Below are positions 1-25,509 of a DNA stretch of 64,000 nt, one piece after another (the first letter of the stretch is position 1; each line of letters starts with the position of its first letter). Both the position numbers and the translations under genes were made by a program. The notes beneath the pieces are model-generated. The model did no database searches. It saw only the letters and a list, made by a program, of their open reading frames with translations, and had not been told where the DNA came from. Origin of the DNA: an uncultured Acidobacteriaceae bacterium (GTDB taxonomy: Bacteria > Acidobacteriota > Terriglobia > Terriglobales > Acidobacteriaceae); NCBI GenBank assembly GCA_964246225.1, contig CAXTQE010000002.1, positions 7,229 to 71,228 of the forward strand, in the 5' to 3' direction.

Positions 1-403
1 AACGATAAAGTTCTCGCCTTTGGCCTCTGTGCGACTTGCTACATGCTGAAACGGCAGGATGAAGAATACTTCGGTGGGCAAAGGGAACGGTGCTGACCCG
101 CGATGGCAACCGTGTGCCGTTCCTGGCTGCACCACGTTGAAGAGCGGGAAGCGGTCGATTGCAGTCCACCACCGCAAGCCGGGAAACAGCGACCCTAAGC
201 TGATGATTACTATTTGTCTTGCCTGTCCTGCCAAGGTGACGCGGACCCAATACTTCCAAAGAAAATGGCCCTCTCTGCTTCGGGTGCTATGGCGCGAGCA
301 GCACCCGCAGGCTCATGAGCAGACCACGCTCGATTTTGTAGAAAAGACGACCTTTGCGAGGCGCGTGGCCCCCTCTTTGGAGATAAGCCCTCAGTGCCTC
401 TGA
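1..403 (+). pseudogene. Zn-ribbon/HNH-like protein, frameshifted, 5' end outside window
   Basis: Frame 1 from base 1 reads NDKVLAFGLCATCYMLKRQDEEYFGGQRE. After frameshifts it continues VLTRDG..CAVPGC...IAVHHRKPG...LMITICLAC, the RDxxxCxxC/HH/CxxC layout of HNH proteins. A paralogous copy starts at 23071. Confidence 0.6.
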
Positions 404-16939: not shown

Positions 16940-16972
16940 TAGCATCTGAGAAGTATACATTCTCAGATGCTA
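16940..16972. other. 13-7-13 perfect inverted repeat (lox-like recombination site or operator)
   Basis: TAGCATCTGAGAA-GTATACA-TTCTCAGATGCTA. Confidence 0.55.
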
Positions 16973-17191
16973 GACAGGTAGAAGGACGCTGAAAGCCGAA
17001 TCTAGAGCCAGGCAGGACTTCAGGCAGCAAAGAGAGAAAATGCTGGAACCGGAAAGGATGGAGGTACGGAGGAGGTAGTCGAAGGGGAGGAACTGACCAC
17101 CCGTCCCGCGGTTCCGGATCAGGCACTCGGCGGAGAGCGGCTGCACGCCTAGGCCCGGACTTTCCTCCGGGCGTCCAAAGCTCCCTCCACT

Positions 17192-17340
17192 CTCTGCCCG
17201 ATCACCGCTCTCGGCCAATGGCTTGAAGCAGCCGGGATCGTTGAGGGCGCGCTCTCCGCGAGGTCGATCGGCACGGCAGAGTAGGAGAGCCGGGAATCCA
17301 TTGGGATTCGGTGAGCGGCATCTTGAAACTGAGCCGCCCA
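17192..17340 (+). pseudogene. Cre-like tyrosine recombinase internal fragment
   Basis: LCPITALGQWLEAAGIVEGAL, frameshift, then REVDRHGRVGEPGIHWDSVSGILK. Matches the CPVxALxxWLxxAGIxxGxLFRxVDRHG segment of Cre-like integrases. Confidence 0.65.
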
Positions 17341-19127: not shown

Positions 19128-20641
19128 TCTGTGGTGAGTTGCCTGCGAAGTTACCCGTACCAGGATAGCTGATGATTTGCCGGTGCCGCGTGGGTCGCGT
19201 GAGCGGACCATAGGACAATGGCAGTCCGCGCACGGTGGGGCCGTGACCGATCCGGCCTCCTTGTCTGTGGTGGCTGGCTCCTCGGTCTGTGTCGGCTGGT
19301 CGGTCTGGGTCGGAGTCGGGACGAGATAGAAGCCAATGCCTTTCTCTGACTTGATCAAAAGGCCGGCGCACCGCTTCTGCTCGACGGCGGTGACGCTCTT
19401 GATGCCGGTCAGCTTGTCGAAGGGGACGGTGATGGAAAGCTTGCCCTCCGACGCTGTAGTTGTGGAGAACGGACACAGCAACCCTATTAACCTTATGGAT
19501 GTAGGATCAACCGCAACGCGGCGAAGCCCAGCAACGGCAAGCGCCGCCTTCCTCTGGCTTGTTCTTGTCAGCTAAAGTTCTGCCATCCTCGGCAAGCATG
19601 GCCCGTTCATAGGCAATCCGGTTGGTATTGTGAGCAACCCAGTGGGAAGTATGGGCAATGATACGGGCGTGGGCCGGAGCTGCAAGCTTCGCCGCCCTGT
19701 GTCCCAGCTCACCCTATGAGAGGTTGGTGGCAGCGACAACAAGGATGCAGGCGAAAGATCATTGCTGAACGTAGCACTGCTGGAGGCAAGGATCAAAACT
19801 ACTTGACACGTCCTTGGGTCGGGCCTAAGTTGATTGGTGTGAAGTCATACTCCAACACGCTCTGTTGTACGCCGATGGTTCCTTTTGGCAAACAGGATGA
19901 CGTGTCTCTGTCGATCTAGTCTCGAAGTTTCATCTCGACACCTAGAGTCCTGCTTACCAATTGGCGAAGCAGGATTTACTTTGCGCTCACTATGCTGAAC
20001 CCATGATAAAGGGCTGTCGAATGACGTTCTCGTCTGCTTTAGAGCGACCTCACTTGCAGGTGTATTCTCCACGTAATCCCGTTCTTAGGCCTGATCATTC
20101 TGCTTCTTAGAGGACTGATGATCGTGTTGAGGTCCTTTTCCAGCGTTTCTGCAGTTCTGTCTCCTTCAGCACGAAACGCAAGGGTGACTTGGTCCGAGGA
20201 GCCTGTTCGATGACACTGCAATCATGGAACTTGTTTTTGCACACCTACTGCTGGCGGTCCGGAGTGTGCTTCGCTGTACTGCTGGATGGCGCCGCAGATC
20301 ATCTCGTCGCGCAGCCTTCGGCAGGCCTGTCGTGAAGCCGAACTATGCGTTAGAACGCAAGCAGGGAGCTGATGAGATTACGGAACCTTACTGCTGAATG
20401 TCGCTGATCGCACTTAGAGAAGTCAAGCCCAGGATAACGTCGGTGGGTTCAGCAAAGGACAACTCACTGGTCATCGATCATACCCCGGCTCATCTGCTTG
20501 AACTGGAGAGCAAAGATGGCAGGACGCGCATCTGGTCTGCTGACTTAATCTTGACTTTTGACAGCAAGGGCGTGGAAAGCATGACGGAGGTGCCACTCAG
20601 CGAAAGAGCTGACGATGCTCTAGTGAGCGGCACTATTCGTT

Positions 20642-21137
20642 ATGGGTAATAAAGCGCGGCGACAAACGATTTCTGAGAGTCAAGCCCCGGGGCTTGTTCA
20701 TAAGCGAGAACTGCGCTGGTACAGTCCGGACGATCATTACCGCGTTGCGGCCCGGTGGGTGCCCGATGCTGGTGGCCACCGGCTGCAGACAATGAACAAG
20801 CTCGGCCAACTCTCTCAGACCACTGTCCCAGAGCGCGTGGAGTTTGAACTTGACGGTCGCAAGCTGACCCTGATTCCGCTCGGAGCGCCAAAGGAGTCCT
20901 TGTGGTTTGTGTTTCGGGATGACACTTACCGGACGGACACGGACCAGGGGGGAGACGATTTCTGACAGTGAAAGCTCCTGCAATGGGACTAAAAAAAACC
21001 GGCGGCTTGCAGCTAGATTTTAATGAAGCGGTAATCCGCCGTGTGCCTATTCGCCGTACACGACATGCCCGCTGGCGTCGAAGGACAACCGGCTTTCCAT
21101 CGCTGTTCCAGCAGGAGAGAAACGCTACGAACCTTAG
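20642..21137 (+). pseudogene. DUF1684-family protein, 5' truncated and frameshifted
   Basis: LRWYSPDDHYRVAARW, FELDG, LWFVFRD, LDFN, NPPCAYSPYTTCPL and NRL...AGEKRY across frames. Confidence 0.75.
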
Positions 21138-21360
21138 GCTTTTTGAGGAGCATCATCATGCAAGCTTCCGCAGCTGCGCTCTCTTGGAGAGTCGGAAGGC
21201 GAGATCGCAAAGTGCTTATTTAGATCAGCAGGCAAATATAGAGGCAGCAAATCCCGACAAGGACACTCTTGACTACTGAGACTTACCGATTTGCCTAGTA
21301 GACGTTAGAGGGCGAAGTCTCTGCCTCTATGAACCACAAACTTCCTACGAGGAGAACCAC

Positions 21361-21750
21361 GTGAGCAAAACCCTGGATGAAGTTCTATCAGCAAACGGAT
21401 CCTATGCCGCATCCTTCGAAGACAAATCCAAACTTGCCTTGCCCCCGGCCCGCGGTTTTGCAATCTGAACGTGCATGGACGCTCGCCTCGATCCAGCGAA
21501 ATACGCCGGGCTTGCGGAGGGTGACGCACACGTGATTCGTAATGCCGGTGGACGTGCTAGTGACAACGCAATCCGCTCCATTGTAATCAGCTGTAAGCTT
21601 CTGGGCACTTGGGAGTTCTTCGTTGTCCACCATACCGATCATGGCATGGAGTTCTTCACCAGCGAGTTTATCCGCGGTCTAGTGAACAACAGCTTGATAC
21701 AGCCGAACTGGGCCCTGGTGGTTTCCGGGATATTGGCAAGAGTCCCGGGG
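21361..21750 (+). pseudogene. beta-carbonic anhydrase (clade D), frameshifted and 3' truncated
   Basis: GGAG RBS plus [14 protein letters not shown]...[37 protein letters not shown] (normally HHTDCGM). Ends at the junction with the RT. Confidence 0.8.
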
Positions 21751-22308
21751 TGACATCAACCTCTGAGCAAAGGTCGAGAACGGGTCCGTATACCGAGGCG
21801 AGATAGACGTTGGCCAGAACCGAACTTGTCGGAGCACCCTGCGGAAGATGTCGCTCGTAAGTGATGAGGCGGGTCAGGAAACTTGCTACATCCAGGCTGC
21901 AGCCTAGTTCGTGCCGCCAAACTCCAAAAACATGGGTGTTCGAGACGCTGGGATAGTAGCTCTCAATATCCATCATTCACAATGAGCTTTGCGCCTATGT
22001 GCCGGGCTGCATTGGTGTGAATTGTTTGTTCTTTGACCGCACCGAAAAGGAAACTGGGAGCTTCGAGATGCCCTGGCAAGCGCCGGGCAATCTTGCGCTC
22101 CACGCGTTTCAATTCATGACTAGGGTTATCAATTGAGCGAAGTTTTGTTAAAACGACACGTTGAAACGTCTTCGTCTTTTTGGTCGTTCAAATGGCGAAC
22201 AGTGAAGGGCAGTGTTGGACGACAACAAATGAAGCGTTTCGCGGTCTTCACCGAGCCGGAATTCGAGGTCGCGAGGCTTCGAAGGTTTATGGGTTGGAAC
22301 CGCTGCAT
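21749..22308 (-). pseudogene. retron-type reverse transcriptase, frameshifted, truncated before the YxDD motif
   Basis: Joined frames give MQRFQPINLRSL/RDLEFRLG...KLRSIDNPSHELKRVERKI...FLFGAVK...NAARHIGAKLIV/MDIESYYPSV...RLITYERHLPQGAPTSSVLAN. Confidence 0.85.
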
Positions 22309-22613
22309 CGCCTTTGTCGTTAGAATCATCCCAATCCGAGTGAAGTAGGAGCTCGGCTAATACCGTTGAGAGAGCTTGAAGCTGGTCTTTGCCGATCGCC
22401 GTCTTATCTGATTCTTCTGCTGCTAGCAGTGTGAAAAGATGGACGGAATCTTGAGTGCGCCTGCAATCTTCTCTAATGTGTCCGTGGTGGCATTGCGATC
22501 ACCCGACTCGATCAGTGATATGTAGCTGCGATTGAGAGAGGCCCGTGTTGCAAGTTCTTGCTGCGAGACGTTTGCATTGAACGAGCCATCCGAACTGCTT
22601 TCGAATAGTTCAT
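22300..22613 (-). pseudogene. XRE/HTH_3 protein upstream of the RT, frameshifted
   Basis: AGAAGG RBS, MNYSKAVRMARS/ANVSQQELATRASLNRSYISLIESGDRNATTDTLEKIAGALKIP/HLFTLLAAEE. Absent from the ORF track. 3' end approximate. Confidence 0.8.
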
Positions 22614-22671
22614 AGATACCTTCTTTTGGACGTAAGAGATGCCCCTTGAACTCCGTCGTCAGCCTTCTGCG

Positions 22672-22870
22672 TTAGGAAAGGTCAATCAGTGCCTCGGCAA
22701 GTTCCCGAATAATCTTGAAGACTTCTTCGCGATTGATTTCGTTTTTTTTGCTTGGCACGAGAGAGCTTTTTCAGAAAGCGGTTGAGTGTGCGCCGTTGTT
22801 CATTACCCAGTTCGTTGAGTGCCAGCGCGGACCGTACTTGGTCTTCGCAGGCACCGAGGTTTTTGCGTAA
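22672..22870 (-). pseudogene. small helical protein heading the HTH-RT operon (type VI retron SP-like)
   Basis: LRKNLGACEDQVRSALALNELGNEQRRTLNRFLKKLSRAKQK/NEINREEVFKIIRELAEALIDLS*. Frameshift in a poly-A run near 22745; start codon lost. Confidence 0.55.
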
Positions 22871-23066
22871 TGCGGGTCTTGGTCGATGAGCTGGATACGG
22901 TAATCGAAGGGGGAGTGATCGGCGGCGAGCTGCTCGACGGCGTGAGCGGGCAACACGACCTGGAAGCCGCTTTCACCGTCCAGTGCTACGACGGGCCTGC
23001 TTCCTGGTTCACGGTTGGCTGGTGGACGTGGAGATTGTGGACCCGCCTGCACAGTGGGTGATGTAG
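22870..23066 (+). pseudogene. small acidic hypothetical protein preceding the HNH-like gene
   Basis: MRVLVDELDTVIEGGVIGGELLDG...FTVQCYDG/CFLVHGWLVDVEIVDPPAQWVM*. Stop is 4 nt before the next ATG. Confidence 0.4.
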
Positions 23067-23070
23067 ACAG

Positions 23071-23250
23071 ATGGCGCGAGTGGTTCAGCGTTCGATCTGT
23101 TGTCCCTGCGGGAACGACAAGGTTTTTGCTTTAGGCCTCTGAGCGGCCTGTTACACGCTAAAACGGCAGGATGACGAATACTTCGGCGGTCACCGGGAAG
23201 AGGTGCTGGCTACCGGTGCGCCGTTCCCGGCTACGCAACACATAAGTGAG
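23071..23250 (+). pseudogene. second, degraded copy of the Zn-ribbon/HNH-like gene
   Basis: MARVVQRSICCPCGNDKVFALGL*AACYTLKRQDDEYFGGHREEVLA. TGA at 23140. Aligns to bases 1-90. Confidence 0.65.
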
Positions 23251-23254
23251 GCAA

Positions 23255-23683
23255 TCATCTTGTTGCCGGTTGAGCTGCAGCATCGTCGTAAGCGCGCCTG
23301 CAACGGTCTATTTTTGTGCTGTGTTCGATGATCCACTGGTTGACAGGGGTGAGTGCAGCTAAAAGTCCGGCACCCATCTCTGTGAGTTCGTACTCTACTC
23401 GTGGCGGCACTTCGGCAAAGAGATGCCGCAGCACAAGACCATCCCGTTCCAAATTGCGTAGTGTAAGCGTCAGCATGCGTTGAGTAATACCGTCTGCCTG
23501 CTGCTTCAGCACAGAAAACCGCGCGCGTCGTCCGGCAGCCGATGTGATACGCCAAAGCACCAACACTGTCCATTTGTCGTTCAACCGTGAACAAAGGCCG
23601 TTCGAATCATCCGGTTGAAAGCGGCTATCCTCTGGCGTGTCTTGATCTGATCTGTTTTGCTTTGTGTTCTCCAAACGTATCAT
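23255..23683 (-). CDS. HxlR-family winged-helix regulator
   Basis: DKWTVLVL, RFSVL, GITQRMLTLTLRNLERDGLV and VPPRVEYELTEMG. Confidence 0.85.
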   Translation of the reverse strand: MIRLENTKQNRSDQDTPEDSRFQPDDSNGLCSRLNDKWTVLVLWRITSAAGRRARFSVLKQQADGITQRMLTLTLRNLERDGLVLRHLFAEVPPRVEYELTEMGAGLLAALTPVNQWIIEHSTKIDRCRRAYDDAAAQPATR

Positions 23684-24219
23684 CTGTGTGCCTTAGGCGT
23701 AGCAATGTGCCGTCATGAGGCGCAGCTCGTCGCTTCCAGTGCGTTGAAGATGCCGGAAGAGGAGATGAACTGGAGTGACTTCTTTGTCGCTCCGGCGAGC
23801 AATGTCGCGCAGGAAATTGCCCGTTGAGGTGGCGATCGAGAGCAGGGGAGATAGGTGAACCCCTGCATTTTGAGATACAAGCGCACTGGCTCCGCTGTGC
23901 GTGCAGCAGCAGCCGAGCCCCGCAGTGCGGAAGTTGCTTGAGCAGCATGAAATTGCGGTATGGTGGGCGACGCCGGTGGAAACGTGTTGATTTACCTTAT
24001 AAACTCGCACATCGATCACCTTTGGCTGGTTCACGAGCACATACTGTTCGTTGCACGCGGCAACGTTGTGGAACGTTGTTGGACCTCTCTGAAGTGACTG
24101 CCCGCCGGCATCGTGCGTCAAGGGTCACCTGTTGTTGCGCAACGGCGACATAGGCATGAACAACGTGACAAGCAAAGAGTGCTCGAAGGATTTTTATGCA
24201 TGTATTTTGAACCTCGAGG

Positions 24220-25509
24220 TCAGGTTCGGTCTGAGGTGAATCCAGCCTTGCGGAAGGCGACGGCGATTTCCGGGTTGGAACGGAAATGCTGCCAAACAAA
24301 GCCGCTGCGCAGGTTTTCAGCCATCAGGAGGCCGATACCGAGATCAATGCCAAGCACGTCGGGTCCGTACCAGTCGACGGCGGGATGGAGGGCGTCACAG
24401 AAGCCGTAGCGTCCCCAGGCCTTGGCACCGTAGTCCATTTTCAGCGCGCGAAGCACTTGGAGGCAGTCTGCTGGCAGGAACGCAAGCGACCCGGCTGCGG
24501 CGCACGGCACCACCGAGCCGTCGACGAGGCCGATCTTCGGCGGGCCGCCCCATGCTTGGTAGCCGGATTGGGAATCGGACGCCGTTATACCCCAGTAGTC
24601 CTGCGAGTAGGGTGCGCCCAGGTCGATGCAGAAGCGTTTGTGGGCGCGCGTCGCGAGCATCGAGTTTTGAAAGTAATTGGCGTACGAGTCGCGCTGCTTG
24701 CGGAAATCGAACCAGGCATGGCTGTACTGGTGCGTAAAAAGCGGGTCGTTGCCGGAGATGTAGGTAAGGCTGTCGTAGGTAATTGTCGGCCGGCTCCAGA
24801 CGGTCCACACCCTGGGGTCGACGGGATAGGTTGGTGAGCCAAGCGCCAGCAGGGGGATCATCATCAGCTCGCAGTAGTGGTTCCAGCGCGCCTCGATAAA
24901 ACCCGTGTTAGCGTGCCAGCCCATGGAAAACTCGTCACCGCCGTTCAACATCCATGGCCAGTCCACGCGATTGTAGATGGCAGTCGCCAATCGCACGATC
25001 TCCGGGCTATGCGCGAAGTAGCCGCGCGCCAGCAGCACGCCGCAGAGCAGCAGCGCGGTGTCGATGGAGGAGACTTCGCTCCAACTCATGGGCAAGCCTG
25101 TTTCGATGTCGTTGAAGTGGTAAAAAAAGCCATGCTCGTGCTTCATCTCGTTGCCGTGAAACTGAAGGGCGCGCAGGACCTGTGCTTCAATCGTGTCGCG
25201 AGAGCCGTAGCCGCGGTAGTGCGCGATGCATAGGGCAGACAAGCCGAAGCCCGTGGCGGCGATGCTGGCGTTGCGACGTGGGTCCAGCAAACCTGCAGGG
25301 TTTACGGCAGCGGCGCGGTCCTGCACCTGCCCGTTCACGGGGCTGGCCTGTTCGACGAAGAAGAGGCAAGCCCGGCGTTCGAGGTCGTCGAGAAATTTTT
25401 CATCGGCCAGCGCAAGCTTCGTTGGTCGGGCGGCAGCAACTGCCGGCAGGCAAAGCGATGCCGCGCCGGCCACGAGCCCGCCGAGGGCTTGCCGGCGTGT
25501 GACAGTCAC
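24220..25509 (-). CDS. glycoamylase-domain glycoside hydrolase (GH144-like), Tat-exported
   Basis: TRRQAL Tat motif, SIAATGFGL, HGFFYHF, EVSSIDTALL, PLFTHQYSH, WGITAS and YGFCDA. Confidence 0.85.
   Translation of the reverse strand: MTVTRRQALGGLVAGAASLCLPAVAAARPTKLALADEKFLDDLERRACLFFVEQASPVNGQVQDRAAAVNPAGLLDPRRNASIAATGFGLSALCIAHYRGYGSRDTIEAQVLRALQFHGNEMKHEHGFFYHFNDIETGLPMSWSEVSSIDTALLLCGVLLARGYFAHSPEIVRLATAIYNRVDWPWMLNGGDEFSMGWHANTGFIEARWNHYCELMMIPLLALGSPTYPVDPRVWTVWSRPTITYDSLTYISGNDPLFTHQYSHAWFDFRKQRDSYANYFQNSMLATRAHKRFCIDLGAPYSQDYWGITASDSQSGYQAWGGPPKIGLVDGSVVPCAAAGSLAFLPADCLQVLRALKMDYGAKAWGRYGFCDALHPAVDWYGPDVLGIDLGIGLLMAENLRSGFVWQHFRSNPEIAVAFRKAGFTSDRT

Follow-up and report, generated by a model that had tools for sequence, protein, structure and literature searches.

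Organization of the locus

The window analyzed here, a 64,000-nucleotide stretch of contig CAXTQE010000002.1 from an uncultured Acidobacteriaceae bacterium, carries on its minus strand the pieces of a reverse transcriptase (RT) operon, raising the question of whether this locus is a working defence system, a new one or the debris of a known one. The source genome is a metagenome bin of 291 contigs (82% complete). Three co-oriented minus-strand gene remnants were found at 21745-22866, coding for a small protein (SP), an XRE/Cro-type helix-turn-helix protein (HTH) and a retron RT. The initial annotation of this DNA had proposed these three remnants, and tblastn with the intact proteins of metagenome contig L016 bore them out. 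Homology to the retron of L016 runs without interruption from 22866 to ~21745 (tblastn and DNA alignment), and the limits first given as 21749-22870 were corrected to ~21745-22866. Nucleotide identity to L016 is 89-91% in SP and HTH and ~75% in the RT. Since all reading frames are lost and both ends are cut, the locus, judged from its sequence, is very probably what is left of a type VI retron operon, a fossil without function, and is neither a working system nor a new one; it is a decayed addition to an already known class. The features of the locus are as follows.

21349..21748, plus strand: beta-class carbonic anhydrase pseudogene, converging on the RT (Pfam Pro_CA)
21744..21749: 3' breakpoint, palindromic hexamer CCCGGG common to the antisense RT (..VDVTPG) and the plus-strand beta-carbonic-anhydrase (..GKSPG)
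21745..22329, minus strand: retron RT remnant, residues 1-195 of ~321, RT domains 1-4
21975, minus strand: insertion of 1 nt in the RT
~22190, minus strand: deletion of 1 nt in the RT
22248..22613, minus strand: Cro/C1-type HTH remnant, ATG at 22613 (PADLOC HTH_VI, Pfam HTH_3, tblastn)
~22273, minus strand: deletion of 1 nt in the HTH tail, at RT codon 19
~22445, minus strand: deletion of 1 nt at HTH codons 57/58
~22577, minus strand: deletion of 1 nt at HTH codons 13/14
22614..22671, minus strand: SP-HTH spacer with the decayed 3' arm of the long-range hybrid RNA stem and the HTH ribosome-binding site AGAAGG
~22648, minus strand: deletion of 2 nt in the SP-HTH spacer, beyond the six 1-nt indels
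22672..22866, minus strand: SP (small toxin) remnant, codon 3 to stop (tblastn and DNA alignment to L016)
22742-22749, minus strand: insertion of 1 nt in an A8 run, SP codon ~42
22867..23209, plus strand: multicopy cassette fragment, in which a frameshifted 66-aa sORF (ATG 22870) is accompanied by the opening ~46 codons of a gene for an HNH endonuclease

Translated in three frames, the minus strand yielded RSIDNP, NAARH, DIESYYPSV and LPQGAPTS, the RT motifs being split over two frames; all RT motifs quoted initially were present, as was the HTH ribosome-binding site AGAAGG upstream of the ATG at 22613.

The region of ~19.5-23.2 kb holds no ORF of 120 aa or more, whereas the ~41 kb to its right is densely filled with long ORFs, and the longest stretches of the window lacking a 150-codon open frame fall in 19572-24222. 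With 23-64 kb staying ORF-dense, the damage is local. The 19.5-23.2 kb region is a gene graveyard whose intact neighbours are PNGase-A-like and HxlR/glucoamylase genes, and a frameshifted DUF1684 pseudogene (20398-21279) adjoins the retron remnant. Scans for Rfam families and tRNA genes (19-24 kb and 15-28 kb) had no hits, so that neither an msr of a known family nor a tRNA as integration site was seen. A Cre-like recombinase remnant considered at 16940-17340 was discarded, having no Pfam support at E <= 0.001; the genes around it are ordinary metabolic ones. A DNA search of 40 relatives with positions 19400-23700 gave no orthologue of the retron part; the matches were confined to the cassette, the carbonic anhydrase gene and a single flank, and these lay on unrelated contigs, so that the ancestral state of the locus cannot be reconstructed.

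Assignment to the type VI retrons

Both RT pieces matched the PADLOC model RT_VI best, with E-values of 1.4e-11 (profile positions 41-97) and 2.6e-22 (99-169 of 279) and scores of 42 and 77 bits against 31 and 56 for the next models. The HTH piece matched HTH_VI best (4.7e-12) and Pfam HTH_3 at 8.8e-11. The three PADLOC E-values (2.6e-22, 1.4e-11 and 4.7e-12) are far beyond chance. The intact proteins of L016 gave the same assignment: with RT_VI its RT (P0001) reached 221 bits and covered positions 5-277 of 279, the next model, RT_II-A, giving 138, and its HTH scored 69 bits on HTH_VI (5.7e-20, full length). In NCBIfam the intact homologue reached 117 bits with retron_St85_RT, against 23 with group_II_RT_mat, 23 with Drt3a and 19 with Drt2. 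No extra Pfam domain was found in P0001, and the retron motifs NAxxH and VTG were found in the RTs of the intact relatives. These profile matches place the RT of the locus among the type VI (clade 3) retron RTs, in agreement with the type proposed initially; group II intron and DRT/UG models stayed at ~23 bits.

Of the features that mark type VI, the RT lineage, a Cro/C1 HTH overlapping the RT and a small helical SP upstream of the HTH were found, while a structured non-coding RNA upstream of SP and a full RT with YxDD were missing from the window. Neither the best RT match nor a maturase or other fused domain pointed to a group II intron, DRT (UG) or Abi system.

Decay of the three genes

The SP of L016 matched the window in two frames, with residues 4-43 at 22864-22745 (92% identity) and residues 42-65 at 22749-22678 (83%). 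The remnant reads as a basic/acidic small protein, RKNLGACEDQV..., continuing as NEINREEVFKIIRELAEALIDLS up to the stop in another frame. Its frame has no ATG, GTG or TTG, and its ribosome-binding site and promoter are also missing. The HTH gene opens with MNYSKAVRMARSM at 22613; residues 1-13, 14-57 and 58-115 of the L016 protein fell in three frames (92%, 95% and 83% identity), and the break after codon 13 leads to a 33-aa product. As in the relatives, the HTH tail overlaps the RT start. P0001 matched the RT remnant with residues 1-18 at 22326-22273 and then 20-195, reaching 21743. The RT had been described initially as cut ahead of YxDD, and homology indeed ends at residue 195 (..DVTPG), two residues before FVDD; the remnant has no FVDD (YxDD) catalytic box, VTG region or C-terminus, and RT_VI profile positions 170-279 are absent. 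With the SP start, ribosome-binding site and promoter missing, the HTH frame broken past codon 13 and the RT catalytic box absent, the locus can make neither SP nor HTH nor an active RT.

DNA alignment with L016 showed that none of the three reading frames is intact, six 1-nt indels interrupting them, and the frame-corrected SP, HTH and RT remnants contain no stop codons. The dN/dS ratios against L016 were 0.17 for SP, 0.04 for HTH and 0.07 for RT, indicating that most of the divergence took place under selection and that the breakage is comparatively recent relative to the split from L016. On the other hand, replacements were present at 7 of the 63 RT positions that are invariant in 10 intact relatives, where close intact RTs have 0-1; the corresponding counts were 1/29 in SP and 0/49 in HTH. 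The seven altered RT positions indicate real decay, unlike sequencing error of the indel type. Decay beyond the indels was also seen in the 3' arm of the RNA stem, which reads GTTCTAGGGGGGCG in 12/12 intact relatives and GTTC--AAGGGGCA in the window.

Junctions of the remnant

The 5' breakpoint lies between 22866 and 22867, and homology opens at SP codon 3. L016 reads ATGAAAAGCAAAAACC, and the window is common with it only from GCAAAAACC on, the first 7 nt of SP being missing. SP has lost its start codon and ribosome-binding site at this end, together with the promoter and the structured leader RNA of ~340 nt, and the cassette fragment replaces all DNA upstream of SP codon 3. The initial proposal that the non-coding RNA region and SP start had been replaced was upheld, with the junction moved from 22870 to 22866/22867. 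Nothing of the ~340-nt leader is left in the window, and the leader DNA of L016 found no match in the rest of the genome.

The cassette, which consists of resolvase, sORF and HNH genes, has further copies in the same genome on contigs C52, C261 and C147 and at window 1-337; at the DNA level the fragment shares 75-81% identity with other contigs of its own genome and with loci in five related genomes. Across the genus, many genomes contain cassettes of a resolvase, a 66-aa sORF and an HNH gene, 70-95% identical (L007:890-2140; L003; L002), and some of these cassettes are broken. The sORF belongs to no known family. The resolvase-sORF-HNH cassette may be a small mobile or selfish module.

At the 3' end the remnant adjoins a frameshifted carbonic anhydrase pseudogene in which the zinc-ligand motif HHTDCGM has become HHTDHGM. 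It is cut at ~133 of 190 residues, with the last ~57 codons lost, and shows 73-75% DNA identity to intact ~190-aa genes in four relatives; the match with one of these (G022) stops at window 21748. The RT and carbonic anhydrase truncations meet in the same CCCGGG, and a single deletion between convergent genes explains both. A search with the RT_VI profile found no other RT fragment or RT C-terminus elsewhere in the genome. Both junction partners are truncated pseudogenes with homologues elsewhere.

Intact relatives and their surroundings

A search of 5.8 billion proteins with a 76-aa piece of the RT found full-length homologues of 300-347 aa with 55-82% identity. The closest, P0001 on L016, is encoded in a locus with an SP of 66 aa, an HTH of 122 aa and an RT of 321 aa. 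At least 15 related loci, most of them from Acidobacteriota, preserve the SP-HTH-RT order (L016-L019, L021, L022, L023-L026, L028, L035, L039, L076-L086 and six same-genus genomes), eleven of the metagenome loci having been recovered by a search with the SP alignment. The RT neighbours an HTH, and often an SP, in 17 Acidobacteriota/Terriglobia genome loci as well as in one Patescibacteria and one Syntrophobacteraceae locus. The expectations that homology searches would recover intact loci, and that homologous RTs would keep their HTH and SP neighbours, were both confirmed. Within the genus of the window a homologous RT was found in 6 of 150 other species genomes (39-56% identity), accompanied by an HTH in 6/6 and a detectable SP in 4/6; this sparse spread is typical of mobile defence genes.

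In 11 intact loci the SP measures 66-71 aa; the HTH of the relatives has 122-135 aa, and the RT is ~320 aa long. The overlap between the HTH and RT genes measures 80 nt in L016; in L017 it is 119 nt. An AlphaFold2 model of SP from an 11-sequence alignment predicted helices at residues 3-17, 24-43 and 48-63 (pLDDT 88, pTM 0.75). Neither SP nor a 61-aa ORF downstream of the L016 RT has a model in Pfam, PADLOC or NCBIfam.

Several intact loci have further genes beside the RT. In L017:5001-7461, and also in L018 and L019, the RT stop overlaps the start of a ThsB-like TIR gene, which in turn overlaps a ThsA-like Macro-domain gene. This gene arrangement suggests that the L017 retron and the Thoeris-like genes form a co-transcribed unit within an integrase-flanked island. 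The RT of this type (P0004) is an abundant metagenomic type VI retron RT, present in 123 index blocks. In L016:3191-4728 the RT end overlaps the 61-aa ORF, which overlaps a coiled-coil DUF2130 gene (253 bits); from this overlap, the 61-aa ORF and DUF2130 gene are possible further RT-coupled downstream cargo. In L021:480-2615 an intact type VI retron is adjoined by an unrelated 488-aa RT gene and then an OB-fold (tRNA_anti-codon) gene, with HNH_2, PLD-nuclease and Fic genes on the other side, surroundings that look like a defence island.

Broken copies of the lineage recur, in the window, L020, G068 and G162, two of them beside resolvase/sORF/HNH cassettes. The second, independent RT remnant (L020:4211-6504) covers residues 136-311 with 86% nucleotide identity to the window RT, and has no HTH or SP; resolvase and HNH genes from the sORF-HNH cassette family lie at a distance of ~700 nt. 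In two genomes of the same genus, SP is split across two frames (L087, G068) and the RT is frameshifted at residue ~194, just ahead of FVDD and near the RT cut of the window (L092/L095, G162); both may be sequencing errors. That the intact relatives form an undescribed acidobacterial type VI sublineage, with an SP family of its own, a longer HTH and a highly conserved ~340-nt leader, which recruits extra effectors, or which is actively disrupted by the cassettes, seems to us rather unlikely.

Leader RNA of the intact relatives

Folding of the DNA upstream of SP in intact loci had been suggested as a check. In 12 intact relatives a strongly conserved ~340-nt region precedes SP, opening with the sigma-70-type promoter element TTGTTGAC. 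RNAalifold analysis of the 12 sequences predicted several leader hairpins and a 10-bp pairing of the leader with the SP coding region. In addition, a 12-bp long-range stem was predicted between leader AAGGAC..CCCCCC and GGGGGGCGTC.CTT just past the SP stop, enclosing the whole SP gene. In the relatives 93.9% of the cells were paired, and 29 pairs carried compensatory changes on both sides, compared with 16.8 +/- 2.2 in shuffled alignments (0/500 reached it) and at most 13 in slid controls. The predicted leader structure of the 12 intact relatives is therefore backed by covariation. The stem enclosing SP and the leader-SP pairing give an architecture like that of the Retron-Vpa2 hybrid RNA and of Retron-Sen3 IR1/IR2. 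The window keeps only the SP-coding part and the mutated 3' arm of the hybrid RNA.

Alternative explanations

The frameshifts, and perhaps the junctions, could be assembly or consensus artefacts arising from sequencing error or chimeric strain joins, the retron being intact in reality. Such a reading draws on the fragmented state of the metagenome bin, on the pattern of six single-base indels with no nonsense codon and dN/dS of 0.04-0.17, as local consensus errors would give, and on the single SP or RT frameshifts that also occur in some related genomes; moreover, exact-protein look-ups gave no independent record of the two junction-spanning ORFs in any other assembly. However, uninterrupted ORFs of up to 1190 aa across 23-64 kb exclude a general indel error rate this high, a long homopolymer is present at just one of the six indels, and indel errors do not account for the 7 RT substitutions at sites that are the same in all 10 intact relatives. 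The genes to which the two ends are joined are themselves truncated and frameshifted, and the missing RT half and leader RNA were found nowhere else in the assembly. An artefact is thus very unlikely, and a genuine fossil remains the preferred reading.

The surviving RT domains 1-4 are common to all prokaryotic RTs and their Pfam RVT_1 match is weak, as might be expected if a group II intron, DGR, Abi or UG/DRT remnant lay by chance near an HTH gene and a small ORF. Yet RT_VI scored above every other PADLOC RT model (77 bits against 28 for Drt3a with the second RT piece), the full-length relative scored 221 bits with RT_VI and 23 with the group II intron RT/maturase model, the relatives carry the retron NAxxH and VTG motifs, and HTH and SP neighbours are conserved over more than 15 loci; descent from another RT system has next to no probability. 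A type VI retron reduced to an active module, with an HTH or SP fragment expressed from the neighbouring cassette by frameshifting or an alternative start, would fit the retained HTH ATG and ribosome-binding site and the absence of replacements at invariant HTH residues. Against this, the HTH frame ends after codon 13 in a 33-aa product, and reading through it would need three separate -1 shifts; the SP frame has neither ATG, GTG or TTG nor a promoter, and the flanking cassette lies on the opposite strand and is itself broken. Programmed frameshifting and a functional mini-module were accordingly rejected, there being too many independent shifts and no SP start codon, and we regard residual activity as highly improbable.

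Proposed ancestor and order of decay

As reconstructed from its relatives, the ancestor of the type VI fossil would have had the sigma-70-type promoter TTGTTGAC and a ~340-nt leader RNA running on through SP in the manner of a hybrid RNA, and would have encoded a three-helix SP toxin of 66-71 aa, a Cro/C1 HTH of 122-135 aa (its gene overlapping the RT) and an RT of ~320 aa. By analogy with Retron-Vpa2 and Retron-Sen3, the RT and HTH would bind the RNA and hold SP silent or neutralised, until phage interference with recombination or RecBCD freed SP and led to abortive infection. This putative mechanism is borrowed by analogy from two distantly related proteobacterial systems that differ from each other.

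A rearrangement fused the sORF-HNH cassette to SP codon 3, with loss of the promoter, leader, SP ribosome-binding site and start, and a deletion between convergent genes took away the RT from just ahead of FVDD together with the 3' third of the carbonic anhydrase gene. The RT is likely to have decayed first, given the replacements at its invariant residues and the finding that RT loss is non-toxic in Retron-Vpa2 (10.1101/2025.10.22.683967). In both Vpa2 and Sen3, a live SP is toxic once the HTH or the leader is lost (10.1101/2025.10.22.683967; 10.64898/2026.04.27.721009), and by this analogy SP was likely silenced before or together with HTH. A single cut removing leader and SP start would therefore have been safe, and the HTH is expected to have been frameshifted only after SP had fallen silent. 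Inactivation owing to the toxicity of the system, as suggested initially, is plausible, the sequence itself being silent on the cause.

The remnant documents the dismantling of a toxin-bearing defence system, with promoter, leader and toxin start removed in one cut and the catalytic half of the RT deleted. In itself it is of little weight; its main use is as a pointer to the intact acidobacterial type VI retrons. In soil and peat metagenomes of Acidobacteriota type, 15 or more close and intact relatives of the locus carry type VI retrons and the hybrid-RNA architecture into the Acidobacteriota, beyond the two proteobacterial systems that have been dissected, and they form a compact natural set for covariation-based modelling of the hybrid RNA.

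Comparison with known systems

Type VI retrons have been defined by a clade-3 RT, a Cro/C1 HTH of cluster 2_1 and a small three-helix accessory protein, with published SP clusters of 75-79 aa and HTH proteins of 91-110 aa (Mestre et al. 2020, PMC7736814). The locus and its relatives resemble this class in the SP-HTH-RT order, in having RT_VI and HTH_VI as best models, in an HTH gene upstream of and overlapping the RT, and in a small SP with no known domain and three predicted helices. They differ from it in that the window copy is dead, the SP of the relatives is shorter (66-71 aa) and the HTH longer (122-135 aa), and the hosts are Acidobacteriota, a phylum unnamed among the published sublineages (PMC7736814).

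Two type VI retrons have been dissected experimentally, Retron-Vpa2 of Vibrio parahaemolyticus (Zhang et al. 2025, 10.1101/2025.10.22.683967) and Retron-Sen3 of Salmonella enterica (Garcia-Rodriguez et al. 2026, 10.64898/2026.04.27.721009). The initial description of the intact relatives as an uncharacterised system consequently fails for the type VI class and holds for the acidobacterial lineage alone. The control of SP differs between the two systems, being translational repression until msDNA accumulates in Vpa2 (10.1101/2025.10.22.683967) and neutralisation by HTH until RecBCD is inhibited in Sen3 (10.64898/2026.04.27.721009); constitutive ssDNA production and RecBCD surveillance have been shown only for Sen3 (10.64898/2026.04.27.721009).

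Retron-Vpa2 makes a ~470-nt hybrid RNA with a1/a2-like inverted repeats (10.1101/2025.10.22.683967). The predicted long structured RNA of the acidobacterial relatives is similarly composed of a non-coding leader and the SP coding sequence, with its 3' end pairing back to the leader, whereas their SP has no detectable sequence similarity to that of Vpa2. In Retron-Sen3 the SP gene is flanked by a conserved inverted repeat, IR1/IR2, of which IR2 follows directly on the SP stop, an arrangement matched by the stem predicted here; RNA pairing inside the SP coding region with compensatory changes and the toxin-then-antitoxin order of SP and HTH are also shared. Sen3, on the other hand, belongs to the proteobacterial cl2075 lineage.
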